Shown in pieces: positions 31,130 through 48,786 of a stretch of 64,000 nt of DNA (position 1 is the first letter of the stretch; every line of letters begins with the position of its first letter). Position numbers and translations under genes: made by a program. The notes under the pieces are model-generated. The model did no database searches and had not been told where the DNA came from. It was given only the letters and a program-made list of their open reading frames with translations. Origin of the DNA: Candidatus Binatia bacterium. GTDB taxonomy: Bacteria; Desulfobacterota; Binatia; Bin18. The stretch covers positions 2,074,947 to 2,138,946 of the forward strand of contig OZ246888.1 in assembly GCA_965231775.1 (NCBI GenBank), read 5' to 3'.

Positions 31130-31600
31130 ATGGCCAAAGAGAAATCAGCCGAGAGAGCGATCTGCGTCAATCGTAAAGCGCGGCACGACTATATCATTAG
31201 CGAAACCCTCGAAGCCGGGATTGTGCTGAACGGCGGAGAAGTCAAATCGCTCCGGGACGGTCGGGCCAACCTCAAAGACAGCTATGGCCGGATCGACAGG
31301 GGCGAGGCGTTTTTATTGAACGTGCATATCAGCGACTACAAACCGGCCCATTATTTCAACGGTGACCCCAACCGCAAGCGTAAGCTCCTGCTGCACAAAA
31401 AAGAAATCATGCGGCTAATGGGTAAAACAAAGGAGCAGGGACTGACCCTGGTTCCGCTGCGGCTGTACTTTAAGCAAGGCCGGGTCAAGGTTGAGTTGGC
31501 TTTGGCTAAGGGCAAACGGACGTATGACAAGCGGGCTGCCATTCGCGAACGCGAGATGAAGCGCGATGTTGAGCGTGCCATGCATAGACGAACGGGCTAA
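31130..31600 (+). CDS. smpB: SsrA-binding protein.
   Basis: RKARHDYIISETLEAGIVLNGGEVKSLRDGRANLKDSY is strongly conserved SmpB sequence. Confidence 0.9.
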   Translation: MAKEKSAERAICVNRKARHDYIISETLEAGIVLNGGEVKSLRDGRANLKDSYGRIDRGEAFLLNVHISDYKPAHYFNGDPNRKRKLLLHKKEIMRLMGKTKEQGLTLVPLRLYFKQGRVKVELALAKGKRTYDKRAAIREREMKRDVERAMHRRTG

Positions 31601-31654
31601 GGGGGTATACTCTCCCCACTCTTCCCTTCTGCGGGGACGAAATAATTCTGCTAA

Positions 31655-32006
31655 GGGGGCGATCTGGTTTCGACGTGGGCTAGAAAGCCAGGGCTGCATG
31701 CCGGGGTTCTGTCCCGCCCGTAAAACGGACAGGCTGCAATTTAACTGCAGACGATTTTGATTACGCTCTTGCTGCCTAGAGCAGCTTGCGTCTTACTGAC
31801 CCGCGCCCGTAGGGTTGGCTAAGGCGACACAAATCGGGATAGGGCTCGCATCGTGCCGAAGGGTGCGCGCCCGAAACTTTACTTTGGCTGGTCTGAGGGC
31901 ATCCTGCTCGTAGGAGGCCCGAGGATGAGATCAAACTACGAGCTACGCATTGTAGATGCCTTGAGTGGACTACTCTCGGACGCGGGTTCGATTCCCGCCG
32001 CCTCCA
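31655..32006 (+). ncRNA. ssrA: Transfer-messenger RNA (tmRNA). Tag reading frame about 31747-31779, giving tag peptide ADDFDYALAA.
   Basis: 5' GGGGGCGATCTGGTTTCGACGTGGG matches the tmRNA 5' acceptor/TLD, with an internal GGCTGCATGCCGGGG. The tag ORF gca gac gat ttt gat tac gct ctt gct gcc tag ends in the typical YALAA. The 3' end is TCGGACGCGGGTTCGATTCCCGCCGCCTCCA (T-arm plus acceptor); CCA is not encoded. Lies immediately downstream of smpB. A possible -10 (ATAATT) is at 31642-31647. Confidence 0.85.
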
Positions 32007-32041
32007 TTTTCTTTCTCCCTAAGAACCCGCAGGGGGTTCGT

Positions 32042-33058
32042 ATGCTTGACTCAATCAAATTTCAGAATTTCAAGATATTACGAAAGGCAACACTTCCGCT
32101 TGCGCCTTTTACCTTAATCGTCGGACCTAACGGGAGTGGGAAGAGTACGGCCTTACAAGCCCTCCAGGCGGTAAACCACACTAGTCACGTAAAATTTCAA
32201 GAGTATGTTACCGCTGGTCTGGAAACCATAGACAATACGGTCGTAAAGATTACACTCCAATGGAGCGAGCTATATGAAAAAGTGGTAACTACCGCGCCTT
32301 GGGCCCGTACCGGCAGCTATCTTCTCCATCATGCTCGACCATCTACAGGTCAAGAGCTACCTCCAGCTTCTGGACATCTGTTAAATTCCCTACTGTCTGG
32401 AATCCGAGTTTATGCGTTAGATGCTTCGGCCATAATTCAGCCCGTCCATCTTGAACCTGCTGTTGAACTTTCCCCAAACGGCCATCGCCTTGCAGGTGTG
32501 ATGGATCGTCTCAGAGATAAAGAGCCCGAGCGATTTGAGGCGTTGAATGATGAGATCGGACGGTGGCTGCCGGAATTCGATCGTATCCTTTTTGAAACGC
32601 CCAAAACCGGACACCGAGCTTTCTTATTACGCACCCGGAAAGGCCATCATAAGATACCAGCTAGAGACCTGTCCCAGGGAACAGTGTTGGCCCTGGCTAT
32701 TCTCACCCTGGTGTACCTTCCTGATCCGCCTCCCCTAATCGGGATAGAGGAACCGGAACGAGGAGTTCATCCTCGCCTTTTACGGAACATCCAGACGGCG
32801 CTCTATCGGTTAAGCTACCCAGAGCAGTTCGGCGAAGAGCGTCAGCCAGTTCAGGTGATTGCAACGACGCATTCTCCGTATTTTCTGGACCTCTATAAAG
32901 ATCATCCTGAAGAAATTGTCATTGCTCAAAAGACTGACGATGGAGCTACATTCGAGCGGTTGTCTGACCAGCCTGACATTATGGAAGTGCTGGACGATGC
33001 TCCCTTGGGCGAGGTCTGGTATAGCGGCATTCTTGGTGGCGTGCCGGCCGAGCAATGA
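32042..33058 (+). CDS. ABC-type/AAA (AAA_21-like) ATPase, lower GC, the first gene of an island at the tmRNA 3' end.
   Basis: Walker A GPNGSGKST, a signature-like LSQGT, Walker B LIGIEEPE and H-loop ATTHSP. AGGGGGT lies 6 nt before the ATG at 32042. The track ORF starts at 31853 inside the tmRNA, which is an artifact. Confidence 0.75.
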   Translation: MLDSIKFQNFKILRKATLPLAPFTLIVGPNGSGKSTALQALQAVNHTSHVKFQEYVTAGLETIDNTVVKITLQWSELYEKVVTTAPWARTGSYLLHHARPSTGQELPPASGHLLNSLLSGIRVYALDASAIIQPVHLEPAVELSPNGHRLAGVMDRLRDKEPERFEALNDEIGRWLPEFDRILFETPKTGHRAFLLRTRKGHHKIPARDLSQGTVLALAILTLVYLPDPPPLIGIEEPERGVHPRLLRNIQTALYRLSYPEQFGEERQPVQVIATTHSPYFLDLYKDHPEEIVIAQKTDDGATFERLSDQPDIMEVLDDAPLGEVWYSGILGGVPAEQ

Positions 33059-33687
33059 AGGTAGCGGTCCTCAGCGAATCGCCAGCGGACGAAGCGGCAA
33101 TTCGTATTCTCATTGACGGCATTATCGGCAGGCAAACTCAACCGGTTGATATGCCTCTAATCCGAACACGCGGCGTCTCCGGCGTCTTCACAATTCTTCC
33201 AACTGTACTCAAGCATTTGCACTACCGAACAGATGCAGATGCTCTCGTTATAGTGGTGGATTCCGACCAGACACCGGTGCATAAGACAGAGCATGAGCAA
33301 GCTGGCGGTGTCGATGAGAGGTGCAGACTTTGCAAAATACGTCGGACCATTGATTCTGTTCTTGCCCGACTTCGACCTGCTCAGGGACGCCCTCAGATTA
33401 AGGTTGCAGTCGGTATAGCCGTTCCAGCGGTAGAAGCCTGGTATCGATGTGGTCTCGACCCGCACGTCACTGAAGCCGCTTGGATAGTAAGTCTGCCGTC
33501 AGGTCCTTTCCCCTATACCATGAGAAGCCTGAAAGAAGATGTGTACGAAACGTCGCGTCCTTCGCTGGACCTGGAAACCCGTCATGCAACAGAAGAAGCG
33601 CGACGGCTCACTCAGGATTTGCCGCTTCTCGAACAATGCTTTCCTACTGGATTCGGTGCCCTGGCTCGTGACGTAAGGAATTGGTAG
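33055..33687 (+). CDS. Small Toprim-like protein (E...DxD) coupled to the ATPase. Candidate OLD/PARIS-like nuclease partner.
   Basis: Start overlaps the ATPase stop (ATGA). N-terminal MKVAVLSESPADE and ALVIVVDSDQ fit a Toprim Glu plus DxD. 210 aa. Confidence 0.5.
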   Translation: MKVAVLSESPADEAAIRILIDGIIGRQTQPVDMPLIRTRGVSGVFTILPTVLKHLHYRTDADALVIVVDSDQTPVHKTEHEQAGGVDERCRLCKIRRTIDSVLARLRPAQGRPQIKVAVGIAVPAVEAWYRCGLDPHVTEAAWIVSLPSGPFPYTMRSLKEDVYETSRPSLDLETRHATEEARRLTQDLPLLEQCFPTGFGALARDVRNW

Positions 33688-33741
33688 CGGCTGAGAGGCT
33701 GCCGTCGCCCGGACAGGGCGCAGTCTGTCACACCGAGCGCC

Positions 33742-36700
33742 TCACCCCGCACCAGCCTGCTCATACGCAAGCCCGAACACCGTATCGGTCAGCCAGCGCT
33801 TGAAGCTCTGGTTGTCCATGAACTGCTTGAACAGCTCGGTGTCGTCCTTCATCACCGAGGTCATCACCCGGAGCAGCGCCTTGTCGTGTTCGATACGGGC
33901 GTTCTCCCGGTCCGAGTTCTGCTGAGCGTTCTTGAAGGCCGTGTCCTCGGCCACCCTGGCAGGAATGGTCTGGGTAATGAGCTGCCGCACACGGTCGGCA
34001 TCGTCCCAGTCGATATCGCCGAAGAGATCGTTGAAGGCCCGCAGGATATTCGACAGCCGGTCCAACTCCGGCTCGGGCAGGTGGCCGCCGCCTATGGTCG
34101 GCACAGGTTCGATCTCGGCATCCTCGTCGGGTAGCATGATTTTCTGTATGGCCTGCTTCTCGGCCCGATAGCTGTCCATGTCGATGGCGTCGAGAATGCC
34201 CTTGGACAGGTCCTCCTCTTGGGGGGAGGGTAGCTTGGAGACCAGGAAATTCAGGAATATCGAGCGTTTCTCCCAGTCCGCGTTGGTATAGGGCAGGACC
34301 GACGACAGGAAGCCGTAGGTCCGCACAAAGCCCTTGGCCTTGCCCTTGAAGTCCACCTGGCCGTCTTCGTCCAAATCGCCCAGATAGACTGCCACGCAGG
34401 CATCGAGGATGGGGTCGAGCTGGTCACGTTCGGCTCCGCTAAGATAACGTGACACAAAGGCGTCGATCTGCTCGGAAGAATAGACCTGAGCGCCGTCAAG
34501 ATCAGCCTGCAAATCGTGCAGCTTGTTGGGGTCGGTCTCATCGGCCAGAATCGTCGCCCGATAGAAGCCGGCAAAGGACTCACAGATAATTGCGGTCTTG
34601 TTCAGAAAATCCAGCACGAAGACATCGTGCTTCTTGGGATGCGCCCGGTTGAGGCGCGACAGGGTCTGCACCGCCTTAACGCCCGCGAGCGTCTTGTCCA
34701 CATACATCGTGTGCAGCAGGGGCTCGTCATAGCCGGTCTGGAACTTGTCCGCACAGATCAGGAAACGGTAGGGGTCCTCTTGTATCTTCTCGGCGATCTT
34801 GCCGGACGGAAAACCGTTGAGCGACGCCTCGCTGACCTTGACTCCGCCGAACTCGGGCTCACCGGAGAACGCCACTATGGCCTGGTAACGGCTCTTGCGT
34901 TCTTTCAGGTAGTCGCGGATGGCGTGAAAGTACTGGATAGCGCGCTCAATACCGTTGGTGACGACCATGGCCCGTGCCTGGCCGCCGATCTTGTTCTGGG
35001 CCAGCACCTGCTCGTGAAAATGATCGACCATGATCTCGGCCTTGAGACGAATGGCATGGTCATGGCCCTCGACAAAGCGCCGCAGCTTCTTCTGGGCTTT
35101 CTTCGTATCGAACTGCGGGTCGTCTTCTACCGTCTTGGCCAGCTTGTAATAGCTGCTCACCGGCGTGTAGTGGGCCAGCACGTCCAGGATAAAGCCCTCC
35201 TGGATGGCCTGCTTCATGGTGTAGGTGTGAAAGGCGTGATGCTTGACCGTGCCGTCGGCCTGCGGGTCCGGGTTGCCGAAGATTTCCAGGGTCTTGTTCT
35301 TGGGCGTGGCCGTAAAGGCGAAGTAGCTGGCGTTGGGGAGCAGCTTGCGCGACTCCATCAAACGGTTGATCTGGTCCTCATAGGTCTCCTCTTCGCCCTC
35401 CTCACCGGCCCGGGACAGCGCCTGCGCCATGGCCGCGCTGGTGCGGCCGCCCTGGCTGGAGTGGGCCTCGTCGATGATAATGGCGAAGCGCCGCCCGCGC
35501 TGCTCGTCGCCGATCTCGTCGAGGATGAAGGGAAACTTCTGCACGGTCGAGATGATGATCTTCTTGCCGGACTCGATGAAGCGGCGCAGGTCGCCCGAAC
35601 GCTCGGCATGCCCGAGTGTCGCGCCGACCTGGGCGTACTGTTTGATGGTATCGCGAATCTGCTTGTCGAGAATCCGCCGGTCGGTGACCACGATGATCGA
35701 GTCGAAGACCGGGCTATCGTCTTTTGCCAGCCCGATCAGTTGATGCGCCAGCCAGGCAATGGAGTTGCTCTTGCCGCTGCCCGCCGAGTGCTGGATTAAA
35801 TAGCGCCGGCCCACGCCACGCGTCCCGGCGTCGGCTAGCAGCCGGCGCACCACGTCGAGCTGGTGGTAGCGCGGCCAGACCTGGGTCTTTTTCTTCCTGC
35901 CCGTCTTCTCGTCCCTGGACTCTACCACTTGGGCATAATTCTCCAGAATGTTGGTCAGGCTCTGGCGGGTCAGCACCTCACGCCACAGGTAGTCGGTCTT
36001 GAGCCCGTTCGGGTTGGGTGGGTTGCCCGCGCCGTCGTTCCAGCCCCGGTTGAAGGGTAGAAACCACGAGGACTTGCCCTGGGGGTGGGTGCAGAAGCGC
36101 GCTGCGCTCTCGTCCACGGCGAAGTGGGCCACGCAGCGCCCGAGTGCAAACAGCTTCTCGCGCGGGTTGCGGTCTTTTTTGTACTGCCAGACCGCGTCGT
36201 CCACGGTCTGCTTGGTCAGGCTGTTCTTGAGTTCAAAGGTAAAGACCGGCAGGCCGTTGATGAACAGCCCGATATCCAGCGCCCGCTGGGTTTCGTCGCG
36301 GCTGTAGCGTAGCTGGCGGGTAACGGTGAAGCGGTTCTGCTCGAAGCGTTCCTTCGCCTTCTGGTTGCCGGCTGAAGGCGTGCCGTAGAACAGGGCCAGG
36401 TGGTGCGACCCGTGGTCGAGGCCGTGGCGCAGCACGTCGATGCTGCCGCGCTTGGCAATCTCGCCCTGGAGCCGGGCCAGGAATTTACGCCGTGTGGGGC
36501 CGTCCTCGGACAGCCCCAGCGATGCCGCGGCCTTGGGTTGGGTGGCACGCAGGAAGGCCGAGAGCTGGACCAGATCGACGCAGTATTCCCGGTCGTAGTC
36601 GTGGAAGTTGCCGCCGCTCCAGCCCACACCGCCGTAGCCGGCGGGTGGTTCGGCCACTGTGCCCGTGGCGGGCGGCTCGCAGGGATGGCCGGCCAGCGCG

Positions 36701-36747
36701 GTGCAGATGAGGCGTTCGAGACCGCGTTCGGAGGTGTCGGTGGGCAT
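33742..36747 (-). CDS. hsdR: Type I restriction enzyme R subunit.
   Basis: 1001 aa with SF2 helicase motifs (QHSAGSGKSNSIAW, IIIDEAHSSQG) and N-terminal nuclease-domain similarity. Confidence 0.9.
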   Translation of the reverse strand: MPTDTSERGLERLICTALAGHPCEPPATGTVAEPPAGYGGVGWSGGNFHDYDREYCVDLVQLSAFLRATQPKAAASLGLSEDGPTRRKFLARLQGEIAKRGSIDVLRHGLDHGSHHLALFYGTPSAGNQKAKERFEQNRFTVTRQLRYSRDETQRALDIGLFINGLPVFTFELKNSLTKQTVDDAVWQYKKDRNPREKLFALGRCVAHFAVDESAARFCTHPQGKSSWFLPFNRGWNDGAGNPPNPNGLKTDYLWREVLTRQSLTNILENYAQVVESRDEKTGRKKKTQVWPRYHQLDVVRRLLADAGTRGVGRRYLIQHSAGSGKSNSIAWLAHQLIGLAKDDSPVFDSIIVVTDRRILDKQIRDTIKQYAQVGATLGHAERSGDLRRFIESGKKIIISTVQKFPFILDEIGDEQRGRRFAIIIDEAHSSQGGRTSAAMAQALSRAGEEGEEETYEDQINRLMESRKLLPNASYFAFTATPKNKTLEIFGNPDPQADGTVKHHAFHTYTMKQAIQEGFILDVLAHYTPVSSYYKLAKTVEDDPQFDTKKAQKKLRRFVEGHDHAIRLKAEIMVDHFHEQVLAQNKIGGQARAMVVTNGIERAIQYFHAIRDYLKERKSRYQAIVAFSGEPEFGGVKVSEASLNGFPSGKIAEKIQEDPYRFLICADKFQTGYDEPLLHTMYVDKTLAGVKAVQTLSRLNRAHPKKHDVFVLDFLNKTAIICESFAGFYRATILADETDPNKLHDLQADLDGAQVYSSEQIDAFVSRYLSGAERDQLDPILDACVAVYLGDLDEDGQVDFKGKAKGFVRTYGFLSSVLPYTNADWEKRSIFLNFLVSKLPSPQEEDLSKGILDAIDMDSYRAEKQAIQKIMLPDEDAEIEPVPTIGGGHLPEPELDRLSNILRAFNDLFGDIDWDDADRVRQLITQTIPARVAEDTAFKNAQQNSDRENARIEHDKALLRVMTSVMKDDTELFKQFMDNQSFKRWLTDTVFGLAYEQAGAG

Positions 36748-36799
36748 GTCTGTTATTCTGATGTGACTATAAAGGAGGAGAGTATTTCACTCTTACGTG

Positions 36800-37321
36800 T
36801 CATCTCGGTGGGCTCCAATGCAACTGGACGCCAAGCCGGCGTAGCATTTCAAAAGGACTGATACATTCCACATCAAAGGCGCGGCAAACGTTGGGTAGTG
36901 GGACTCGTCTGCGCACGTTCGGGTCGAATTGCTCCAGGGTGACCACGACACACCCTGTCTGCTTGGCATAGGCCGCAAGCCAGCCGTCGGCGACGTCTTG
37001 AAATTCTGTCTTAGCGGTGTCCTGGAACTGGGGCTGAGCCATCACCCATATCAACATTTGCTGGTACTCCGACGTAATAGCCGCTGTCGAAGTATCTACA
37101 AACGCGTTGGCACCGAATCGCTGTTCTGCCCAGTCCCAAAGGTCATCTCCTCCGCGTTTCAGTTCCTCCTGAACTCTGTCGATACTGTAGAGCCTTCCTT
37201 CCCGGTTGTAGTAGATAAGCACATGCCAATAGCCTGGACAGAAATCGAAGTCATAGAATCGCCGCTTCGCTTGAATAAAGACGTTGGCATCCAGCACATA
37301 TCTCTCATCTGCCTCGCTCAT
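36800..37321 (-). CDS. DUF4411 (PIN-like) family protein.
   Basis: N-terminal YVLDANVFIQAKRRFYDFDFCPGYW. 173 aa. Lies directly downstream of an ImmA/IrrE gene. Confidence 0.7.
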   Translation of the reverse strand: MSEADERYVLDANVFIQAKRRFYDFDFCPGYWHVLIYYNREGRLYSIDRVQEELKRGGDDLWDWAEQRFGANAFVDTSTAAITSEYQQMLIWVMAQPQFQDTAKTEFQDVADGWLAAYAKQTGCVVVTLEQFDPNVRRRVPLPNVCRAFDVECISPFEMLRRLGVQLHWSPPR

Positions 37322-37326
37322 TACGG

Positions 37327-38469
37327 CTACAATCCGAGTGTCTGCGCAAATTGGTCGAAACTCCGGCCATGCAGACCCGTGAGGCGATACGCGTCACGGT
37401 ACAGTAGCCGGCCCTCCCGCGCTGCACGAATGACCGCGCTACCGAAGCGACGGCCGACACGTCCCCGTTGCGCGTTGTAGAAATTCCCCCCACTCGATTG
37501 CTGCGCAGATCTTCGCCGTTCGTCAGCCTTGTATCGATCCAGGAATCCGTAGAAATCGTCTCCCGCCATCAACTCTCGATCCAACACTCGCCGGGCCGCT
37601 ACGAGGGGGCTGACCTTGAAGCGCCTCGCCAGCGCTTGAAACGGTTCGGCCGACTCGGCCACGCTCGGCCAGCAGCCATCAAGCTCGTCTCCCGGAATCA
37701 GTACTTCCGCCGCAACCTCGTTACAAAATCTTTCAACATCATCGTCGTAGGGCTGGAGGTTCACCAAGTTGAACACACCGCCTGTCCCCAACCACAGGTG
37801 GGCCAGTTCGTGCGCCAGGGTAAACATCTGAGCAGACGTGAAGTCCGCTCCGTTGATGAAGATTAAAGGCGCGTAATCGTCGCAGAGCACAAATCCCCGA
37901 AATTCCTCCGGGTCCAGTTTCTGTCGCGTATTGTTCTCCACGACGCCGTTGACGACGACCAAAACACCTATCTCTTCCACCGCCTGCCGAAGCCCAACGA
38001 GCGCGGCGGACCATGTAGGGTGCGTGCTCGCCCAGCCATCATCGACACCGAGTGTCCTTCGGATATTGTTGGCCGCGTCCACGCGACTCGAAGCCAACGT
38101 GACAGTCCCGACGAAGGCAAGAGGTTCTTCGCCTACCTCGATAAGATATTCGCGCATCCACTCTTGCCGCCGCTGCATTTGCCGCACAGTGGTTATCAGT
38201 GCCGCGCTCGGCCGCGCCGGCTGCTGGCCTTTGAGGGTGCGAAAATCAGCAACCGGTAATTTCTCATCCGGCGGCTCCTCTAAAAGCAAGGCTCCGAAGG
38301 GTGTGAGCGTCGCCTTTGCAAACCGCTCCAATTGCTTAAACGTCGGCTGCGCCTCACCGCCTTCCCACTGTGGCAGCTTCGGGAAGCGCTTCGCCAAGTC
38401 AGACATGTCCTTTCCCGAGCGCTCGCGCGCCCAGCGAACCACTGCGGGGTTCACCGCGACCTTGTTCAT
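37327..38469 (-). CDS. HTH (XRE-like) + ImmA/IrrE family metallopeptidase (DUF955).
   Basis: HELAHLWLG is the HExxH zinc peptidase motif, and the N-terminus is HTH-like. The start is chosen at MNKVAVNP; the track begins at 38511. Confidence 0.75.
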   Translation of the reverse strand: MNKVAVNPAVVRWARERSGKDMSDLAKRFPKLPQWEGGEAQPTFKQLERFAKATLTPFGALLLEEPPDEKLPVADFRTLKGQQPARPSAALITTVRQMQRRQEWMREYLIEVGEEPLAFVGTVTLASSRVDAANNIRRTLGVDDGWASTHPTWSAALVGLRQAVEEIGVLVVVNGVVENNTRQKLDPEEFRGFVLCDDYAPLIFINGADFTSAQMFTLAHELAHLWLGTGGVFNLVNLQPYDDDVERFCNEVAAEVLIPGDELDGCWPSVAESAEPFQALARRFKVSPLVAARRVLDRELMAGDDFYGFLDRYKADERRRSAQQSSGGNFYNAQRGRVGRRFGSAVIRAAREGRLLYRDAYRLTGLHGRSFDQFAQTLGL

Positions 38470-38517
38470 ATTGATAACACAGCACCCTGACCGGCTACGG
38501 TCAATCTTCAAAGTCGT

Positions 38518-39903
38518 CTATCGCTCAGCATATGCCGCGTCAATCAGAGCTTTAGCCTTATCAAACTGCTTTGGTTCGGCTTCCCCATCCGGCAACCGTA
38601 CAGCTGCCTCGCGCACGTCGAGCTTGCCGGTGACGACATCGGCGATCAGGCGGGTGCGGTATTCGTGGAGGATAGCTTGCTCTTTGCGGCAATTACCTAT
38701 CGCTATGGCGATCTTGCTCTGTTCCTCATCCAGGACCGCAGCGATTCGGTCCTGTTCGGACACTGGTGGAACCGCGATCAAGAGGGCCTTGATGTCCGCG
38801 ACGTTAATTCGATTGAACGTTGAACCGACAAGGAGCAATGCAAGTTGATCTGACATGACCTTGCTGTGCAGGAAGTAGTTTAGCCATCGCTGGTTCTCGG
38901 AAGAGGACCTGATGAGACATACATCTTGTCCCATCGCGAAACGATCCTCTGTCGTGACAAGGGCAGCGGCCCCAACGCTTACGTTGCGGCAATAGATCAG
39001 GTCTCCAGGCCGAGGCTCCCTTCCTCCTTCGATCAGCTTCTCATACCATTCGGGAGTGGTACGGTTTGATGCTTTGAAGTTTAGCTCGAAGGACTGTGCT
39101 TCCCGTACGCTGGCCAAGGGAATACCACCATCGACGAAAGGCACTGTAAGGTGCTTGCAGTCGATAACCTGCCATTTCCTCCGGAGTGCAACCACCTCCC
39201 AATGCTCCGGCACCTCCCCCAGCCACTCCACGCCGGAGGGCTTGTAGACCGGGTAGGGCTGGCCGGTGCGGATGTCGATCTGGCCGGTGACGGCTTGGTG
39301 GATGAGGGCCTGCTTCTGCTCTTCCAGCAGCGCAATCAGCTTCTCCTTGGCGTGGATGTAGCACCGGATGCGCCGGTCGGCGTGGTCGAGGAAGCGGGCG
39401 ATGGCGGTTTGTTCGGAGAGGGGCGGGACACCCAGCTCTATATTCCTAACCTGCTTTGATGAGAGATGTTTGACGGTCGTAGAGTGTGCAAGGTCCCCAA
39501 TGATCTTTAATGGTAGTTCAACAGCGCGGACAATAAACCCTGCGCGGGAGGAATTTTTCGCTCGGAGACAACACATCCTCTGATTTAGCAAGGCGGCCGG
39601 TCCCCGCCATCGCGCAACGTTGAACAATCCGTCCATCCCCACGATGATATCACCCGTTTCAATCAGAGCCTCTTCAACGATGGCACCACCGTAATTCACC
39701 TCTGTCTTGATAGCGTGCAAATCGCGAATCCGAATAAGCGGTGTTCCTTCTCCCTTCACAAAGTACTGCGAGTCAAAGGGATAGCCGTTGACTACTGTGG
39801 CAATGCTGGACAAACGAGACACCTCCCAATGTGCCGGCACCTCTCCCAGCCACGGCACACCGGAATCCTTGTAGGCAGGGTAGGGTTTCAGTTCGGCGGC
39901 CAT
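38518..39903 (-). CDS. hsdS: Type I restriction-modification specificity subunit (two target-recognition domains).
   Basis: Duplicated architecture with a repeated WLGEVPxHWEV...L and the central and C-terminal conserved helices of HsdS. 461 aa. Confidence 0.85.
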   Translation of the reverse strand: MAAELKPYPAYKDSGVPWLGEVPAHWEVSRLSSIATVVNGYPFDSQYFVKGEGTPLIRIRDLHAIKTEVNYGGAIVEEALIETGDIIVGMDGLFNVARWRGPAALLNQRMCCLRAKNSSRAGFIVRAVELPLKIIGDLAHSTTVKHLSSKQVRNIELGVPPLSEQTAIARFLDHADRRIRCYIHAKEKLIALLEEQKQALIHQAVTGQIDIRTGQPYPVYKPSGVEWLGEVPEHWEVVALRRKWQVIDCKHLTVPFVDGGIPLASVREAQSFELNFKASNRTTPEWYEKLIEGGREPRPGDLIYCRNVSVGAAALVTTEDRFAMGQDVCLIRSSSENQRWLNYFLHSKVMSDQLALLLVGSTFNRINVADIKALLIAVPPVSEQDRIAAVLDEEQSKIAIAIGNCRKEQAILHEYRTRLIADVVTGKLDVREAAVRLPDGEAEPKQFDKAKALIDAAYAER

Positions 39904-39906
39904 TTG

Positions 39907-39960
39907 TCAGTCAAAAAGCGTTTTCGCGACCTCGTTGCCCGAGAGGTCACGGAGCAGCTT
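39907..39960 (-). pseudogene. Possible truncated hicA-like toxin remnant (17 codons, MKLLRDLSGNEVAKTLFD*) overlapping the hsdS start.
   Basis: Short ORF immediately 3' of the hicB-like gene. Its N-terminus resembles the HicA/YcfA start, but it ends in a stop just where hsdS begins. Confidence 0.2.
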
Positions 39961-40172
39961 CATACCGCGATGGCCTCTTCCTTGATGAGATGGAGCCTGA
40001 TGGCTCTTGGTGCGGTGTCTTCGTCGAAATGGCAGAGGACCGCGTCCTTCACCATGTCTTTCAGGTCGTCCCAATCATCGCCCTGGGTGAAAATACTGTA
40101 CCCAAGCGCTCGGGCGTCGTACCCGCCTTCAACTGCCTCCGTGACCTCGAAAATGATCTCGGTCGGTCTCAT
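39960..40172 (-). CDS. hicB: HicB-like (UPF0150) antitoxin.
   Basis: MRPTEIIFEVTEAVEGGYDARALGYSIFTQGDDWDDLKDMVKDAV fits the UPF0150/HicB N-terminal domain. The track ORF starts at 40193. Confidence 0.55.
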   Translation of the reverse strand: MRPTEIIFEVTEAVEGGYDARALGYSIFTQGDDWDDLKDMVKDAVLCHFDEDTAPRAIRLHLIKEEAIAV

Positions 40173-40235
40173 CGAATAATCCTCCGTGTGCATCTCTGCA
40201 CGCGTCGCCCCTCCGATTGGCGTCGGCGCGCATGT

Positions 40236-42221
40236 TCATGACTTGCTGTTACCCCCGATGATCTCGTCCAACAACCCCTCCGTCTCTTGCTCCAGTGACA
40301 GAATATCCGCCCGGATGTCCGCTAGCGTCCGCAGGGGCTGCGGCTTGTAGAAGTAGCGGGTGAAGCTGATCTCGTAGCCGACCTTCACGTTGTCGGGCTG
40401 ATACCAGGCGTCAGAGGCGTAGGGCAGGACCTCGCGCTGTAGGAAGGCTTCGATCCCGCCCGCCTCTTGCAATGGAATCTGCTCGGTGTCGCGCAGGTCG
40501 GTGTCGGGCTCGTACTCCACCACGGCGGGTTTGCCGTTGATGGTGGTGGCGAACAGGCCACGTAACGAGTCAGCTTCCGTGCCTTTCTTGTGAAATTTCT
40601 TGATGACGGGTGGCGCGTCCTCGCTGCGCTCGCCGTTTTCTTTGAGCTTCTTGATCTCGGCAGCCTTGTAGGCGCGATTGGGGTCAGTGCCTTGGATACG
40701 CAGCGGTCGCTCGACCGTGACCTTCCAATAGCCGAAGGCGGCGTTGTCGAATATTTTGCTCTGCTGGCTCTCCTTGAAGTCAAGAAAGGTGTCGCAGATA
40801 CGAGCGATGTCTTCCTCTGACAGCTCACAGTTCTTCTTGCCCAGGTTCTTGCGCAAAGGCCGGTACCAGGTAGTAGCGTCGATCAACTGCACCTTGCCCC
40901 GGCGATGCGCGGGCTTGCGGTTGGTCAGCACCCAGACGTAGGTGGCGATGCCGGTGTTGTAGAACATATTGAGGGGCAGAGCGACGATGGCCTCCAGCCA
41001 GTCGTTCTCGATAATCCAGCGGCGGATATTGCTCTCGCCCTGCCCGGCGTCGCCGGTGAACAGCGAGCTACCGTTGTGCACCTCGGCGATGCGGCTGCCG
41101 AGCGGGGTGTCCTGCTTCATCTTGGAGAGCTTGTTGGCGAGAAAAAGCATCTGACCGTCGCTCGAACGGGTGACCAGCGAATACTCGGGGTCGCCGGCAT
41201 GTTCGATCACGAAGCGCGGGTCGCGCATGTCCTGCTTGCCGCCCATGCGCTCCAGGTCGGTCTTCCAGCTCTTGCCGTAGGGCGGGTTGGACAGCATGAA
41301 ATCGAACTCGCGGGCCGGGAAGGCATCGTTGGCCAGGGTGGAGTGTTCCGGGCCGCCCACGATGTTGTCGGCGGCTTCTCCCTCACCCTTGAGCAAGAGG
41401 TCGGCGGTGCAGATGGCGTAGGTCTCGGCGTTGATCTCCTGGCCGTAGAGATGGGTGGATACGTCCTTGTCGTACTCGGCGGCGAGTTGCCGCAGGGTGT
41501 CTTCGGCCACGGTCAGCATGCCGCCGGTGCCGTAAGCGCCGTCATAGAGCAGATAGGTGCCGGATTTGATTGCGTCGGCAATGGGTAGGAAAACGAGCCT
41601 GGCCATGAGGGTTACGGCGTCGCGCGGGGTCCAGTGTTCGCCGGCCTCCTCGTTGTTCTCCTCGTTGAAGCGGCGCACCAGCTCCTCGAAGATCGAACCC
41701 ATGCCGTGGTTGTCGAGGCCGGGGTGTTTGACCGAGCCGTCGGTGTTGAGGACCGGGGCTGGGCTCAGGTTGATATCGGGCGAGGTGAGCTTCTCGATCA
41801 GCGTGCCCAGGGCGTCGGCTTTGGACAGGCGCGTAATCTGGTTGCGAAACTCGAAGTTGTCGAGGATGTCCTGCACGTTGGGCGAGAACCCATTGAGGTA
41901 GTCTTCAAAGTCTGCCGTCAACTGCTGGCGATTGGCGCGGGCTCTGAGGTCGCGCAGGGTGAACTTGGAGGTGTTGTAGAACGCCTGGCCCGCGGCCTGG
42001 CGCAGGGCCGGGTCCTGTTCGACCACGCCCGCCGTATCGAGGCTGGCCCGCATGTCCAGGACGGCCTGCTTGCTGTCTTCCAGGACCGCATCCAGCCGGC
42101 GCAGTACGGTCATGGGCAGGATCACGTCGCGATACTTGCCACGCACGTACAGGTCGCGCAGCACGTCGTCGGCAATGCCCCAGATGTAGTTGGCAATCCA
42201 GTTCAGGTCGGTGGTGCTCAT
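40236..42221 (-). CDS. hsdM: Type I restriction-modification DNA methyltransferase (N6-adenine).
   Basis: FMLSNPPYGKSWK is the NPPY catalytic motif, and the N-terminal HsdM domain begins MSTTDLNWIANYIWGIADDVLR. The start is chosen at 42221; the track extends to 42431. Confidence 0.9.
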   Translation of the reverse strand: MSTTDLNWIANYIWGIADDVLRDLYVRGKYRDVILPMTVLRRLDAVLEDSKQAVLDMRASLDTAGVVEQDPALRQAAGQAFYNTSKFTLRDLRARANRQQLTADFEDYLNGFSPNVQDILDNFEFRNQITRLSKADALGTLIEKLTSPDINLSPAPVLNTDGSVKHPGLDNHGMGSIFEELVRRFNEENNEEAGEHWTPRDAVTLMARLVFLPIADAIKSGTYLLYDGAYGTGGMLTVAEDTLRQLAAEYDKDVSTHLYGQEINAETYAICTADLLLKGEGEAADNIVGGPEHSTLANDAFPAREFDFMLSNPPYGKSWKTDLERMGGKQDMRDPRFVIEHAGDPEYSLVTRSSDGQMLFLANKLSKMKQDTPLGSRIAEVHNGSSLFTGDAGQGESNIRRWIIENDWLEAIVALPLNMFYNTGIATYVWVLTNRKPAHRRGKVQLIDATTWYRPLRKNLGKKNCELSEEDIARICDTFLDFKESQQSKIFDNAAFGYWKVTVERPLRIQGTDPNRAYKAAEIKKLKENGERSEDAPPVIKKFHKKGTEADSLRGLFATTINGKPAVVEYEPDTDLRDTEQIPLQEAGGIEAFLQREVLPYASDAWYQPDNVKVGYEISFTRYFYKPQPLRTLADIRADILSLEQETEGLLDEIIGGNSKS

Positions 42222-42374
42222 CTTTTTGCGTATCCCTGAGGGGCCTGTAGCGGATATCACACGGAACGCAGGACACAACACTCCGGGCGTGTACCGAAGG
42301 GCAGAGGCGAGGCAGGGGCCTACGGAACAGAGGAGAGCCTTACGGATCGCGGGGCAGGCGTCAATCCCTGCTCT

Positions 42375-42540
42375 TATGTGGGTGTCGGCGAACCCACTCA
42401 TGCCGATGCCATCCTCGACCGGTTGGTGCACAACGCCTATCGCATCGAGCTGAGGGGCGAATCGATGCGAAAAATCAACGCCGGGAGAGGTAGACGACTC
42501 AAGGCCAAGGTTTTACTGTACGAAGGCTATGAGGGAGAAT
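42375..42540 (+). mobile_element. IS21-family istB C-terminal remnant (pseudogene fragment).
   Basis: Frame translation ...[43 protein letters not shown]...* matches the conserved IstB C-terminus (AILDRL..H....I.L.GeSyR). No N-terminal ATPase part or istA is present. Confidence 0.55.
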
Positions 42541-42544
42541 CATA

Positions 42545-44083
42545 ATGAGTTCCGATAAAACCGGCGGCTCCGTAGGCGCGCCGACAGACAGCGAACTGCG
42601 CGCGGCCGCGCAGGCTTTATTTCTCGATCTGGATCGGGGCGACGTGGATTTCTTCGCAACCGCGATGGGCAAGTTCGTCGACGACTACAATGCCATCGAC
42701 GCCATGGACGCGCCGACCCTGCCGACGAAATATCCGCGCGGTGAGGGTTATCGCCCGACCGGCGATGAGAACCGTTACGGTGCCTGGCAGTGGAAGTGTT
42801 CGATCAAGGGCGCGGCGTCCGGCAAGCTCGTCGGCAAACGCGTCGCCATCAAGGACAACATCAGCGTTGCGGGCATGCCTATGCTGAACGGCTCGGCGCT
42901 GTATGAAGGCTTTATCGCCGACGAAGATGCGACCGTCGTGACCCGCGTGCTCGATGCCGGCGGCGAAGTGGTCGGCAAGGCCGTGTGCGAAAACTTCTGC
43001 TATTCCGGCGGCAGCCATACGTCGGCTTCGGGTCCGGTGAGGAACCCGCGCGACCCCGACTTCATGACCGGCGGCTCGTCGAGCGGCTGTGCCGCATTGA
43101 TTCTGACGGGTGAATGCGACATGGCGATCGGCAGCGACCAGGGCGGCTCCGTACGCATGCCGAGCTCGTGGTCTGGCTGCGTCGGGATCAAGCCGACTCA
43201 CGGCCTCGTGCCCTATACCGGCGCCGGACCCATCGAGCACACTATCGATCACCTCGGGCCGATGGCTGCCTCGAGCGTCGATTGCGCCCTGTTACTCGAG
43301 GTAATCGCGGGCTACGACGATGGCCTCGACCCGCGCCAGGTGGCGGCATTGCCGGCAAAACCCTATAGCGAACTCGTCGGCCGGGGGATTGAGGGGCTGC
43401 GGATCGGTATCGTTCGCGAAGGCTTCGGCGCGCCGGGCTCGGAAGCGGACGTGGATGAATCCGTGCTGGCCGCGGCCCGGCGGCTGCAGGAAGCCGGTGC
43501 CGTGGTCGCAGAAATCTCCATCCCCATGCACACCGAGGCATTGAAGATCATGTTCGCAGGTTCTGTCGACGGGACGCTGTCAACGTGGAGCGATCAGGGT
43601 CCGGCGGGCGGAAACGCAGATGGCCACCACCCACTCGGAGCGATCCGCTTCTTTCAGGAGGCGCGCAAAACCCGGGCGGCGGAACTGCCGGACATGGCCA
43701 AGACCGTGCTGTTGTTCGCGCAGGTCATGCGCGCACGGTACGGCAACTATTATTCCGCCAAGGCCCAAAACCTCGTCCGCACGCTCCGTGCCGCCTACGA
43801 TCTCGCGTTTGATAAATGCGACCTGCTGGTGATGCCGACGACCGTGATGAAAGCACACCGGATCCCACCACCGGACGCATCCCGTGAAGTCGTCATGGGG
43901 CTCACGCTCGACATGATCGGCAACACCGCGCCCTTCGATGCGACGAGCCATCCGTCGATGAGCGTGCCGACTGGTCTGTCGAACGGCCTGCCCGTCGGCA
44001 TGATGATCACAGGACGCTACGGTGAGGACGATGTCGTGCTGCGCGCCGGGCATGCGTTCGAGACGTTGCGTGGACCGTTTTGA
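42545..44083 (+). CDS. Amidase-signature family amidase.
   Basis: GGSSSGCAALI (GGSS[SG]G) and KDNISVAGMP. RBS GAGGGAG precedes the start. 512 aa. Confidence 0.85.
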   Translation: MSSDKTGGSVGAPTDSELRAAAQALFLDLDRGDVDFFATAMGKFVDDYNAIDAMDAPTLPTKYPRGEGYRPTGDENRYGAWQWKCSIKGAASGKLVGKRVAIKDNISVAGMPMLNGSALYEGFIADEDATVVTRVLDAGGEVVGKAVCENFCYSGGSHTSASGPVRNPRDPDFMTGGSSSGCAALILTGECDMAIGSDQGGSVRMPSSWSGCVGIKPTHGLVPYTGAGPIEHTIDHLGPMAASSVDCALLLEVIAGYDDGLDPRQVAALPAKPYSELVGRGIEGLRIGIVREGFGAPGSEADVDESVLAAARRLQEAGAVVAEISIPMHTEALKIMFAGSVDGTLSTWSDQGPAGGNADGHHPLGAIRFFQEARKTRAAELPDMAKTVLLFAQVMRARYGNYYSAKAQNLVRTLRAAYDLAFDKCDLLVMPTTVMKAHRIPPPDASREVVMGLTLDMIGNTAPFDATSHPSMSVPTGLSNGLPVGMMITGRYGEDDVVLRAGHAFETLRGPF

Positions 44084-44216
44084 GCGCTCGCGGAACGCTG
44101 CCGACGGATCAGCCTTGCCGCATCGGCGCCGGGCGGCCACCAGGAAGAGACCCGTTAATGACGGGTTTGCAGAACTCCGACATTCATAGTCGCAAGCCTA
44201 ATCATGGGAGAGTGCG

Positions 44217-45920
44217 ATGAGTTCACATAGCGAAATTCACTACGAGGTCGTCTGGCCGAAATCGCCGCTAGCGGTACAGACACGGCATCCCGCCGAGCGG
44301 CTCGATACGCTCGAGGGCAAACGAGTCGGGTTCCTGTGGGATTTCCTGTTTCGCGGTCACGAGCTTTTTCCGGTCATAGAAAAAGAGCTGCAGAACCGTT
44401 TCACCGGGATCGAAATCGTCGGGTACGACGAATTCGGCAACACGCACGGGGGCGATGAAGCCGCGGTGATTGCGGCCCTTCCTAACCGGTTGCGTGACCG
44501 CCGTATCGACGCCGTCGTCTCCGGGGTGGGATGTTGAGGGAGTTGTACGCCCGCCGTGATGCGGGCGTCGGTTGTCGCGGAAGCCGCCGGGGTGCCGTCG
44601 GTGTCGCTGGTCTGTGAAGGTTTCGAACGCCAGGCGTCGGCCACCGGTCGCGGCGCGGGATTCGACGGACTTCCCCTCGGCGTGCTGCGCGGGCACGTGG
44701 ACGCTCAGAGCCACGACGAGATGATCGGCTACCTGCGTGACTCGACACTTGACCAGATCATAGCCGGTCTCACCAGCGCACCGGTCGTCAGTGAGGGCGC
44801 TGCCGCCGAGCCCGCGCCACTGGATGTCGTTGCCACGGGAACGATTGACGATATCAACGAACGTTTCAGCGTTGAGGGGTGGAGCGACGGCCTGCCGGTC
44901 ATTCCGCCGACCCAGGACCGGGTCGCGGCGTTTCTCGCCGCGCTGAACGATAACCCCTGGAGAGTAATCGGCACCGCCCGGCCCTCGGGCCGCGATATCT
45001 CGGTCTGGTCGGTTGCCGTCAATGCCGTCATGACCGGTTGTCAGCCTCGGCACCTGCCCGTGCTCTTGGCGCTCGCCGAAATCATTGCCGATCCCGGTTA
45101 CGGCGTCGAGCACTCGGGCAACACCACCGGGGCCGACGCCCTCGTCATCGTGAATGGGCCGTCGATGGCCGAACTCGGCTTCAACGCCCGGCAGGGGGTA
45201 CTTCGGGAGGGCGCCCACGCGAATACCAGCGTCGCCCGATGGCTCCGGCTGTACCTGCGCAATGTCTGTGGATTCACCGCCGATGAACACGACAAGGCCA
45301 CGTTCGGTAACAGCACCCGGGTGGTATTGGCCGAAGATGAGCAGACGCTGACCGACATCGGCTGGCAACCACTGAGTGCGGAGTTCGGGTTCGGGCGGGG
45401 CGACGACGTGGTCACCATGGCCCGCATGAACAGTGGCCTCATCCTTGGCAGCGTCTTCGGATCGACAGGCGATGCGATTGTGCCGTATCTGGCCGACGGC
45501 CTCGTTCGAGTCAGTGGCTGGGACCTCGCGCACATCTACGGGTTCGGACAGGGCCATTATCGACCGCTGCTGATCCTTTCCCCGATACTGGCGCGCACAT
45601 TCGCCCGATCCGGCTGGAGTAAGGATGACGTCAAGCAGGCGCTGTTCATGAAGGCACGGCTGCCGGCGGCCAGGTTCGAGCAGCTCATCGGCGAGTGGAG
45701 CAACATCGATGCGGGGCGCCGACCCCTGTTCGAACTGGCGACCGAAGGTCTGGTCCCGCCGGTCTTCGGCGAGTCCAACGATCCGCAACGCCTCGTGCCG
45801 ATCGTGACCGAGGCCTCGAAGTTTCTGATCGCCGTTGCAGGCGACCCGAACCGGAACAATGCCTACGTAATGAGTAACGATGGCCCGCACGGTGACTGGA
45901 CGGCCAAGGCCGTACCATGA
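44217..45920 (+). CDS. Fused UGSC-motif selenoprotein domain plus partner domain, with an in-frame TGA (Sec) at 44535-44537.
   Basis: Track ORFs 44217..44537 and 44556..45920 share a frame and are separated by a TGA. Read-through gives ...AVVSGVGC-U-GSCTPAVMRASVVAEAAG...ERFSVEGWSDGLPVIPPTQDRV... An 8-bp hairpin follows 9 nt downstream. The stop overlaps the transporter start. Confidence 0.7.
44547..44568 (+). promoter_or_regulatory. Candidate SECIS hairpin (acgcccgc-CGTGAT-gcgggcgt).
   Basis: Perfect 8-bp stem with a GU-containing loop, 9 nt after the UGA. Confidence 0.5.
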
Positions 45921-47686
45921 ACCCCTACGCCTTCGGCATCATCACGAGCATCGTGATCTACCTGTTGATCGGAAATTACGCCGGCCGGCGGGTAAAAGAT
46001 GTCGATGATTATTTCGTTGCGGGGCGTGACAGCTCGACCTTGCTGATAGCCGGCACCCTGGTCGCGAGCTACCTGAGCACCGCCGCGTTCCTGGGTGAAA
46101 CCGGGTTTACGTATCAAGGGCACGGCGCGATCCTCATGATCCTGGTCGGGGTCAATATCGTCGGCTACGTACTGGGCGCGGCGTTCTTCGGCCGCTATGT
46201 CAGACGCAGCCAGGCGATAACAGTTGCCGAGTTCTTCGGCAAGCGTTTTAACAGTCGGCGCGTTCAGGCCGCCGCGGGCGTGACGGTTATCGGGGGTGTC
46301 ACCGCCTATTTGCTGGCGGTGACCCAGGGGGCATCACTTGCGATATCGGAAGTGATGCATATTCCCTATGACGTGACTTTGCTGATCGTCTGGATCGGTT
46401 ACACCTCGTTCACCATATATTCCGGCTCGAAAGGCGTGGTGTTGACGGATACCGTCATGTACCTGCTGTTCACCTTCGTCGGTGTCCTCTCTCTCTACTA
46501 CATCCTTGGTGAGACCGGGGGATGGTTCGCCACCATCGAGTCCTTGGCGGTATACGAAGCCAAGCCGGACATCATCTCTTGGCACGGTGTCGTCGGATCC
46601 GATTCGCGCTGGCAAACCTCGTTCGATTCAGTTGGCTGGGGTCTCGTGCTCGGGATCGCGTGGGCATTCACGATTGCGGTGAGCCCGTGGCAATCGAGCC
46701 GCTACCTCATGGCGAAAAACGAGCACACCGTGATTCGATCGGCCTGCTTCGCGAGCGCGTCGGTCGTGGTGCTGTATTGGGCGTTGGTGGTGTCCGCCGC
46801 CGCCGTCAATCTCCTCAACCCGGATATCGAGCCCAACGAAAGGGCAATGATCTGGGCGGCTTTCAGCGCCATGCCGACCTATGCGGGCGTGTTGTTCATG
46901 ACCGGCGTGGTGGCTGCCGCCCTGTCCTCGGCGTCGACATTTCTCTCCTTGATTGGATTCAGCGCGACGAACGATCTGGTCGAGATTCGTGAGGGCGATG
47001 AACGTCGCAAGCTCCGGTTGAGCCGCTACACCATGCTGGCGACCGGGATCGTCATCTTGATCGTGGCGTATTTCCAACCGCCCGCGATCATGATGATCAG
47101 CTATTTTGCGGCGACGCTGTTTTCATCGTCGTGGGGACCGGTGGCCTTCATGAGCGTGTGGAGTAAACGCATCACGGCAGACGGGGCTTTTTGGGGGATC
47201 GTCGTCGGCTTCGTTGGGAACCTGATACCGAAGATCCTCTCGGTATTCGAGGTGATATACTTGCCGGTTTATCTCGATCCATTCGTGATTGGCATCGTAT
47301 TGAGCCTCATCACGATAATTCTTGTATCGCGAAATAGCCGGGTCACCGAGGAGGAATATCTTTATCGTATGCAGGTCCATCAAACGCCGCCCACCGAATA
47401 TGATCCCTCACTGACTGCCAAAACCTTGTGGTTCGCGAAAGGTTTAATGGTCTGCGGCGCGGCCCTGACGATACTCATGATCGTGTTTTACGTGTTGCCG
47501 TACGAGCATGCGGTCGGGCACAAGGCCGGACTACCTGTGTCTGGCCCGGTGGTTCTTGTCATGAGCGGCGAGCTGATTCTCTCGATAGGGTACGGCGGTA
47601 TCCTCTTCCTGTGCGGTGCGTTCGCCTACTGGTGGACTAAGCGCTCCTACGGCGAACGTCACGAGGGGCCGGATCAACATTCGTAG
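45917..47686 (+). CDS. Sodium:solute symporter family transporter.
   Basis: 589 aa, multi-TM, with the SSF-typical N-terminus (DYFVAGR...). ATGA overlap with the upstream gene. Confidence 0.85.
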   Translation: MNPYAFGIITSIVIYLLIGNYAGRRVKDVDDYFVAGRDSSTLLIAGTLVASYLSTAAFLGETGFTYQGHGAILMILVGVNIVGYVLGAAFFGRYVRRSQAITVAEFFGKRFNSRRVQAAAGVTVIGGVTAYLLAVTQGASLAISEVMHIPYDVTLLIVWIGYTSFTIYSGSKGVVLTDTVMYLLFTFVGVLSLYYILGETGGWFATIESLAVYEAKPDIISWHGVVGSDSRWQTSFDSVGWGLVLGIAWAFTIAVSPWQSSRYLMAKNEHTVIRSACFASASVVVLYWALVVSAAAVNLLNPDIEPNERAMIWAAFSAMPTYAGVLFMTGVVAAALSSASTFLSLIGFSATNDLVEIREGDERRKLRLSRYTMLATGIVILIVAYFQPPAIMMISYFAATLFSSSWGPVAFMSVWSKRITADGAFWGIVVGFVGNLIPKILSVFEVIYLPVYLDPFVIGIVLSLITIILVSRNSRVTEEEYLYRMQVHQTPPTEYDPSLTAKTLWFAKGLMVCGAALTILMIVFYVLPYEHAVGHKAGLPVSGPVVLVMSGELILSIGYGGILFLCGAFAYWWTKRSYGERHEGPDQHS

Positions 47687-47716
47687 CCCGCGAGAAACCC
47701 CGGCCAGATACACGCT

Positions 47717-47983: not shown

Positions 47984-48044
47984 CTATTCTGCTGGATATT
48001 CATTCGATGACTTCATGTTGTCATTCCAATGATGGTATGCCATC

Positions 48045-48708: not shown

Positions 48709-48730
48709 GCTCTGTGATCCCAGCCTAAAC

Positions 48731-48762
48731 AAAAAAGGGCGCACCGCGGTGCGCCCTTTTTT
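48731..48762. terminator. Bidirectional rho-independent terminator between convergent genes.
   Basis: AAAAAA-GGGCGCACCGCGGTGCGCCC-TTTTTT: a perfect GC-rich palindromic stem flanked by A6 and T6. Confidence 0.75.
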
Positions 48763-48786
48763 GTTCCGATGAATGCAGAATGTCTG

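Follow-up and report, generated by a model that had tools for sequence, protein, structure and literature searches.

Composite accessory cargo at the 3' end of ssrA, a probable integration hotspot of a Candidatus Binatia chromosome

The genes following the tmRNA gene (ssrA) were analyzed in a 64,000-nt stretch of the chromosome of a Candidatus Binatia bacterium (contig OZ246888.1, positions 2,074,947 to 2,138,946). This stretch is called the window here, and all coordinates refer to it unless a relative is named. Between ssrA and a downstream CoA-transferase gene lie an ATPase/Toprim-like gene pair, a type I restriction-modification (R-M) operon with embedded genes, a remnant of an IS21 element, an amidase/transporter operon, and toxin-antitoxin (TA) genes. 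The region was compared with the corresponding loci of about 25 related Binatia species, labelled L001 and so on. We consider it likely that the 3' end of ssrA is an integration hotspot and that the segment 32007–42512, and more widely the region up to ~48727, is its accessory cargo.

The left flank of the region is conserved. The gene smpB (31130–31600, plus strand) was recognized by synteny and by protein identity to Binatia relatives; SmpB shared 90–99% identity with its counterparts in 19 Candidatus Binatia species and 57–85% with those of more distant genomes. The gene order nagZ-panB-panC-smpB-ssrA was kept in all relatives compared. After a gap of 54 nt follows the full-length ssrA (31655–32006, plus strand), detected with ARAGORN (tag peptide ADDFDYALAA) and Rfam (RF00023, 176 bits). 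CCA is not encoded, and the junction reads ...CGCCTCCA followed directly by TTTTC. In blastn comparisons, homology to every relative ended at 32006–32008, and the last base of the tmRNA gene (32006) is the left border of the variable region. A spacer of 35 nt (32007–32041, plus strand) separates ssrA from the next gene. Neither a terminator nor a promoter-like site was found in this spacer. Its segment TTCTCCCTAAGAACC matched the leader upstream of the L010 integrase gene with a score reached by 2 of 2000 shuffles (p ~0.001). The spacer is probably the shortened leader, on the side of the left attachment site (attL), of an integrase-bearing element.

The first two genes behind the spacer overlap. 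The product of the first (32042–33058, plus strand; GC content at third codon positions (GC3) 0.495) was an ABC-type ATPase with matches to AAA_21 (4.9e-27) and AAA_15 (5.5e-20). In PADLOC it matched HEC-01A (PDLC04182, 1.6e-45) and nine more HEC-01A models, with weaker matches to AriA (4.8e-28), Old (7.2e-19), and GajA (7.5e-12). The Walker A (GPNGSGKST), signature (LSQGT), and Walker B-like (IEEPE) motifs were all intact. The start of the second gene (33055–33687, plus strand) overlaps the stop of the ATPase gene by 4 nt. Its 210-aa Toprim-like product had an E...DxD pattern and an invariant H-H-C-C set, and its nearest fold was that of OLD nucleases. The match to HEC-01B was weak (1.9e-4) and limited to the first 130 residues; no AriB or DUF4435 match was obtained with PADLOC or Pfam profiles, and a sequence-profile search of the PDB returned noise only (E ≥ 0.32).

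The R-M operon occupies the minus strand and apparently is intact, with the type I domain set complete in one locus as judged by Pfam and PADLOC profiles. The methyltransferase gene hsdM (40236–42221; HsdM_N and N6_Mtase; MTase_I 1e-239; GC3 0.832) encodes an NPPY motif. The specificity gene hsdS (38518–39903; two Methylase_S domains; Specificity_I 2.4e-92) encodes two target-recognition domains and holds an internal 66-nt repeat; an exact look-up of the window HsdS returned no record. The restriction gene hsdR (33742–36747; HSDR_N, SWI2_SNF2/ResIII, T1R_D3-like; REase_I 4.4e-42; GC3 0.833) encodes a DEAH motif. Two co-directional genes are nested between hsdS and hsdR. The upstream one (37327–38469, minus strand) encodes an ImmA/IrrE-type M78 metallopeptidase/regulator (Peptidase_M78, PF06114, 2.6e-15) with a HELAH motif; it matched PHROG 2439 ("transcriptional regulator") over the full length (9e-48) and, weakly, capP and RmrA in PADLOC (models for RmrA, the RosmerTA antitoxin, 8e-11 to 5e-4). 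The second, located 5 nt downstream (36800–37321, minus strand), encodes a DUF4411 PIN-like predicted toxin (PF14367, 1.2e-49) with no RmrT or other PADLOC match. DUF4411 has been described as a potential toxin of the VapC group of PIN-like domains, with HTH-DUF955 proteases as partners (Matelska et al., 2017; PMC5499597).

Another small open reading frame (ORF) lies between hsdM and hsdS (39960–40193, minus strand; 77 or 70 aa). No match was found for it as HicB in Pfam (E up to 5), NCBIfam, PADLOC, PHROGs, or the PDB, and its single-sequence AlphaFold2 model was poor (pLDDT 65) and had no fold match in Foldseek. The product was identical to NCBI MCY4387063.1, a "hypothetical protein", and a cluster look-up gave the same name only. 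Beside it, an 18-codon ORF (39907–39963, minus strand; MKLLRDLSGNEVAKTLFD and a stop) was read directly from the sequence; judged by eye, it is possibly the stump (start) of a hicA-type toxin gene. This possible stump and a resemblance seen by eye are the sole support for a HicB label of the 39960–40193 ORF.

In the plus-strand frame starting at 42222, between hsdM and the next gene, a C-terminal remnant of the IS21 gene istB was found (42384–42476, 31 residues; IstB_IS21 3.2e-6, 27.3 bits, above the Pfam cut-off), covering only profile positions 203–233 of 238. Neither IstA nor a full IstB was present in the window, so that the last ~31 IstB residues are all that is left of IS21; the same remnant was present in L001, L003, and L006. 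It is followed by an amidase/UGSC/UGSC/sodium-solute symporter operon (42545–47686, plus strand; Pfam, NCBIfam) and by Pfam-recognized genes on the same strand for an orphan Phd/YefM-like antitoxin (47717–47983), and an RHH antitoxin (48045–48311) with a PIN toxin (within 48109–48708). A repeat search revealed a perfect 19+19 palindrome (48728–48765), the bidirectional terminator of the CoA-transferase gene (48787–50028), and homology with all relatives resumes at 48722–48728. These limits place the hypervariable region between the tmRNA 3' end and this terminator.

Most of these features had been listed in a sequence-only reading of 31655–42540, made before any comparison. The complete tmRNA gene right after smpB, the ATPase and Toprim-like gene pair, the full set of hsdR, hsdS, and hsdM, and the istB fragment were all recovered by the searches above. 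As for the genes said to interrupt the R-M system, DUF4411 and ImmA/IrrE were borne out by profiles, and the HicB label was supported by none. The right end set at 42540 marks one layer only, as the variable region runs about 6 kb further, to ~48727, and the amidase operon and TA genes, beyond that end, are also cargo of the hotspot.

Gene content after ssrA was different in almost every species, and the possibility that the relatives share one gene content there was not borne out. In L008, an amidase gene follows nearly directly, with the ssrA end plus 21 bp joined to window position 42513. L017 has the R-M operon without the ATPase pair and in another arrangement. Other defense genes were found in L016 (10907–15818) and L019 (10905–15841), which carry a Hhe/PDC-S37-type DUF4011 helicase-nuclease split into two ORFs, and in L018 (12634–15785), where a DRT UG19 reverse transcriptase gene and a BrxL C-terminal fragment come after ssrA. 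LuxR/VWA/FGE-sulfatase genes occupy this place in L004, an IS4/5 element in L012, and a luciferase-like monooxygenase gene in several relatives. In the more distant L022, L023, and L025, ssrA leads directly into the CoA-transferase gene.

Parts of the R-M operon survive in relatives that lack it as a whole. The amidase leader is joined to 79 bp of the hsdM 5' end in L002 and to 142 bp from the 3' end of hsdR in L012, and L003 also keeps the hsdR 3' end; R-M fragments survive in L003 and L005 too. The region 33710–42408 is missing in L006. As part of the shared istB stump is gone with it, the L006 state is a deletion. L008 was considered as a pristine empty site and ruled out: its amidase leader is joined to retained CCA and 16 nt of the native flank, which makes it a deletion product as well.

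The ATPase/Toprim-like pair is distributed in a different way. It occurs at ssrA without R-M genes in L006, L007, and L083–L085, in L084 separated from ssrA by a TA module. In L081 and L088, it lies away from ssrA, flanked by ordinary metabolic genes and without a tRNA or mobility gene nearby, and in L086 and L087 it is found in other contexts. An obligatory linkage of the pair to ssrA was ruled out by its presence at these non-tRNA loci. The ATPase gene was 78–84% identical to that of L006 and L007, where the core flank is 87–93% identical, and it is broken in L006, L081, L083, and L085. Two more divergent pairs, only one of which stands at ssrA, have as their next gene one for an AlaX-like tRNA(Ala)-editing domain (tRNA-synt_2c/tRNA_SAD; L085, 4674–5387; L086, 4725–5159); this gene may be a third component of the pair, and it is absent from the window.

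Nucleotide composition separates the modules. GC3 was 0.47–0.50 in the ATPase pair, 0.83 in hsdR and hsdM, and 0.60–0.68 in hsdS, the peptidase gene, and the DUF4411 gene, compared to 0.61–0.76 in host genes of the window. The R-M operon itself is thus a mosaic of hsdR/hsdM (0.83) and genes of 0.60–0.68. Identity values separate them as well. The hsdR, DUF4411, and peptidase genes were 92–97% identical to those of L017 at the DNA level (hsdR 92%), while core genes of the same two genomes were 87–88% identical. The hsdS alignment with L017 was confined to the conserved spacers, so the recognition domains of the two differ. The amidase/UGSC/symporter operon had a DNA identity of 94–97% between species with a core flank of 84–94% identity. 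It is absent in L007, L013, L016, L019, L022, L023, and L025, and overall in about one third of the relatives, and seems to be metabolic cargo of the ssrA hotspot that is exchanged laterally. Since their identity exceeds that of the core, the R-M and amidase operons were exchanged between species after the chromosomes had diverged. The presence and order of the TA genes (47717–48708) also vary among relatives.

Relatives carry the pair and the R-M operon apart from each other, and the two are unlike in composition; the region therefore is a composite of separately acquired modules and not the single island that the sequence-only reading had described. Its lower GC content, also claimed there, holds for the ATPase pair only, as hsdR and hsdM have GC3 above that of the host. 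Uniform GC content and codon usage would have spoken against foreign origin; GC3 was not uniform. The general idea of an island was supported, and was refined by the composite origin, by the wider right border, and by frequent loss in relatives.

Evidence for integration at the ssrA 3' end, which the same reading had called a classic integration site, came from the relatives. In L010, 88 bp separate the tmRNA gene from an intact P4-type tyrosine integrase gene (Arm-DNA-bind_3, Phage_int_M, and Phage_integrase domains), behind which come genes for a VapE-like primase/helicase and a JukA-like defense protein (element at L010 8293–15595). Live elements at ssrA therefore deliver defense cargo. Integrase pseudogene fragments lie beside the tmRNA gene in five relatives (L001, L011, L015, L017, and L018); that of L001 covers residues 4–200 and has two stop codons. 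L017 contains an exact 20-nt ssrA repeat (12409–12428); behind it stand a further leader and a truncated gene for a helicase like that of L016 and L019, an arrangement that points to tandem accretion. The displaced native flank (CCA and hairpin) was recovered downstream in three relatives, at 1.9 kb in L002, 3.4 kb in L011, and 6.4 kb in L001, preceded by 6–13 nt of tmRNA-like sequence; in L002 and L011, this is a degraded right attachment site (attR). These integrase and attachment-site remains give good grounds for the earlier suggestion that the island in the window may be degraded.

Two types of ssrA 3' side can be distinguished. In the native type (L002, L003, L008, L009, L012, and L014), CCA is encoded and a terminator hairpin follows; in the leader type, found in the window and twelve other loci, CCA is missing and a pyrimidine-rich leader follows. 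The leader is homologous among the integrase-bearing L010 and L011, L013, L017, L001, and L038. Every locus with an insertion-type leader, the window included, lacks an encoded CCA, and native-flank loci encode it (compared at 32004–32012 in the window and at ~10870–10885 in L001–L019). Since CCA is not encoded, leader-type genomes depend on CCA addition for their tmRNA. Viral contigs were also scanned for the tmRNA 3' end plus leader and gave one match, which was uninformative. It was an unrelated tmRNA gene (tag ATPMAMAA) on a 50-kb viral contig (L082, IMGVR_UViG_3300033977_000034, 1361–1707); its last 20 nt and 4 nt of flank are those of the Binatia gene, and genes for tRNA-Asn and tRNA-Thr come next.

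The following course of events would account for these data. Elements with a P4-type tyrosine integrase would take the terminal ~20 nt of ssrA (TTCGATTCCCGCCGCCTCCA) as insertion site, and each insertion would rebuild the gene with the element's own copy, replace the encoded CCA and native terminator by the pyrimidine-rich leader, and push the old flank downstream. Through repeated insertion and later decay, in which integrases were lost, an IS21 element inserted, segments deleted, and modules traded among species, a mosaic would arise. The 35-nt leader stump, the ATPase/Toprim-like pair, the R-M operon with its nested pair, and the istB stump would be what is left of it in the window. The putative link of the window itself to ssrA integration rests on its position, on the lost CCA and terminator, and on the leader stump, and we infer from these and from the relatives that its modules arrived by the integrase route.

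Several observations weigh against this reading. No integrase domain was present in any ORF of the window, and tblastn with the L010 integrase found no fragment. No attR was found in the 64 kb by exact or fuzzy searches with 13–45 nt of the tmRNA end, which allowed up to 3 mismatches in 20 or 29 nt as well as looser matching. The sequence-only reading had likewise seen neither an integrase nor an obvious direct repeat matching the 3' end of ssrA. An nhmmer profile detected no displaced native ssrA flank in the window, and a search of 31600–49000 for direct and inverted repeats returned only the hsdS-internal repeats and the terminator palindrome. Since the window lacks integrase, attR, and flank, the integrase route for its modules is drawn from the relatives and from a 15-nt leader match. 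The pair stands at ssrA in six Binatia species with an identity of only 74–88%, which fits long residence as well as repeated acquisition. As the R-M remnants in L002, L003, L005, and L012 and the deletion junction in L006 show, absence in relatives often is secondary loss, and the R-M operon may be old in the clade. In addition, E. coli was not protected from phages by the HEC-01 prototype when this was assayed (bioRxiv 10.1101/2024.01.29.577857).

Part of this evidence would suit a hotspot that works without integrase. In that case, modules would enter and be swapped, after DNA uptake, by illegitimate recombination and by homologous recombination between conserved flanks, ssrA being the left one and either the amidase operon or the CoA-transferase gene the right one; the tmRNA end would be merely the last strongly conserved base. 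A window free of integrase, attR, and native flank is in agreement with this, as are the independent segregation of modules and the occurrence of the ATPase pair elsewhere between ordinary metabolic genes without a mobility gene or tRNA. The amidase operon and R-M genes are more alike between species than the core flank, as expected of recombinational exchange, and L007 has a duplicated CoA-transferase terminator region around TA genes. Such a mechanism does not account for the integrase genes and fragments, the 20-nt attachment-site repeat, and the displaced flanks of relatives, located at exactly the ssrA end. The window, moreover, lost CCA and the native terminator and keeps a leader-like stump, which is the signature of crossover at an attachment site and not of flank-guided replacement. 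Both routes are compatible; flank recombination probably explains later exchange and not the origin, and as a full explanation we regard it as unlikely.

The genes could also be no island but ancestral genes of the clade, deleted in many relatives. The R-M remnants in L002 (hsdM 5' end), L012 and L003 (hsdR 3' end), and L005, the L006 junction, which is a deletion cutting the shared istB stump, and the presence of the pair at ssrA in six species would be understandable in this way. An ancestral origin is hard to reconcile with three compositional classes, all off the host norm, with R-M genes more conserved than the core relative to L017, and with a site that demonstrably takes foreign elements; in the distant L022, L023, and L025, moreover, ssrA passes straight into the CoA-transferase gene. 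We consider it improbable. A still-mobile prophage, satellite, or integrative mobilizable element able to excise, which the position at ssrA and the L010 element (integrase plus VapE-like primase) might bring to mind, is effectively refuted for the window, where recombinase, replication, transfer, and structural genes and attachment-site repeats are lacking and all ORFs are accounted for by defense, TA, or metabolic functions.

The cargo attributed to integration at ssrA is predicted to act mainly in defense. By analogy with OLD, Gabija, and PARIS, the ATPase of the pair would be an infection sensor licensing a nuclease effector. Judging from the protein families, the R-M operon would methylate self DNA and cut unmodified invading DNA, and the M78 peptidase/DUF4411 pair would serve as a TA or abortive-infection backup, and also as a stabilizing (addiction) module for the operon. 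As no terminator or promoter-like site was found in the 35-nt gap, the ATPase/Toprim-like pair probably is transcribed from ssrA or from inside it. With the native terminator of ssrA removed by the insertion, read-through from the strong ssrA promoter may drive expression of the pair, and tmRNA 3' processing may release it. Taken together with the AlaX-like genes next to the L085 and L086 pairs, the boldest reading, a defense nuclease wired to, or acting on, alanine-accepting RNAs (such as tRNA-Ala or tmRNA), is highly improbable: the pair lies off ssrA in L081 and L086–L088, and a TA module intervenes in L084.

With respect to the features by which islands at tRNA and tmRNA genes are recognized, the window shows the 3' position with a synteny break, the accessory distribution, and the atypical composition; a recombinase and attR were not found in it and are present in relatives (L010; L017). 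The closest parallel is formed by the ssrA islands of Dehalococcoides, tandem islands bounded by 20-bp ssrA repeats (PMC3146451). The Dehalococcoides and Binatia loci share insertion at the 3' end of a single-copy tmRNA gene, tandem accretion, an integrase by attL, and variable cargo downstream of ssrA. They differ in the recombinase, which is CcrB-like serine in Dehalococcoides and a P4-type tyrosine integrase in the Binatia relatives, and in the cargo, consisting of dehalogenases in the former and of defense genes and an amidase/transporter operon in the window, where the mobility signatures are all gone. With defense islands and integrase-poor hotspots, the region shares the clustering of several unrelated defense systems that differ by genome at one fixed site.

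The pair resembles HEC-01 in its two overlapping genes, in the HEC-01A match of the ATPase, and in the Toprim-like E...DxD pattern of the partner; unlike HEC-01, its partner matches HEC-01B weakly and has the H-H-C-C set, and the pair is not embedded in an Hma system. An ABC ATPase coupled to a Toprim-type nuclease, near a site used by P4-type integrases, also recalls PARIS, Gabija, and OLD. However, the best match of the ATPase is HEC-01A and not AriA as in PARIS, the partner lacks an AriB or DUF4435 match, and OLD and GajA are fused proteins, whereas the partner here is a separate small protein. The nested genes agree with the predicted three-component HTH-DUF955 and DUF4411 TA system (PMC5499597) in both families and in the upstream, co-directional peptidase gene, here 5 nt away, and differ in being nested in a type I R-M operon. 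Cassettes embedded in such operons are common (bioRxiv 10.1101/2024.01.29.577857), and the present one shares this nesting with them, although the combination of an HTH-M78 peptidase and DUF4411 is not a PADLOC system.

Islands linked to tmRNA genes, defense hotspots, cassettes embedded in R-M operons, and pairs of the HEC-01 type have all been known before. What is new is the phylum, together with an unusually full view of decay gained by comparison; no new kind of system was found. The locus provides a documented comparative example of an ssrA hotspot in Binatia, an uncultured phylum with scant annotation of mobile elements and defense genes. Its life cycle is visible across species as an intact integrase element, truncated integrases, attachment-site scars, and integrase-free cargo. 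For annotation, it indicates that relatives can reveal islands without integrase or repeats. The candidate HEC-01-like system and the R-M-embedded M78-peptidase/DUF4411 pair are natural examples suited to the choice of experiments.

Several further observations concern the right part of the locus. In L007, the CoA-transferase terminator region (window 48722–48857) is present twice, at 12623–12756 and 14029–14306, flanking TA genes; recombination may occur at the right border of the hotspot as well. The luciferase-like monooxygenase gene is 93–99% identical between species and occurs at three positions within the locus (L009, 10991–12148; L011, 14360–15517; L012, 10993–12063; L001, 17358–18443; L005, 14693–15763; L006, 16351–17421). 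The L005 and L006 copies sit precisely between the genes for UGSC and the symporter.

Elsewhere in the window, a 178-aa ORF without a Pfam match (19862–20398, minus strand; GC 0.49, GC3 0.49) is located among host-like genes. Two overlapping ORFs of 284 and 487 aa (3958–6272, plus strand) gave no Pfam, PADLOC, or PHROG match and had a GC content of 0.42–0.455 compared to ~0.59 for the host; they probably represent a separate foreign insert.

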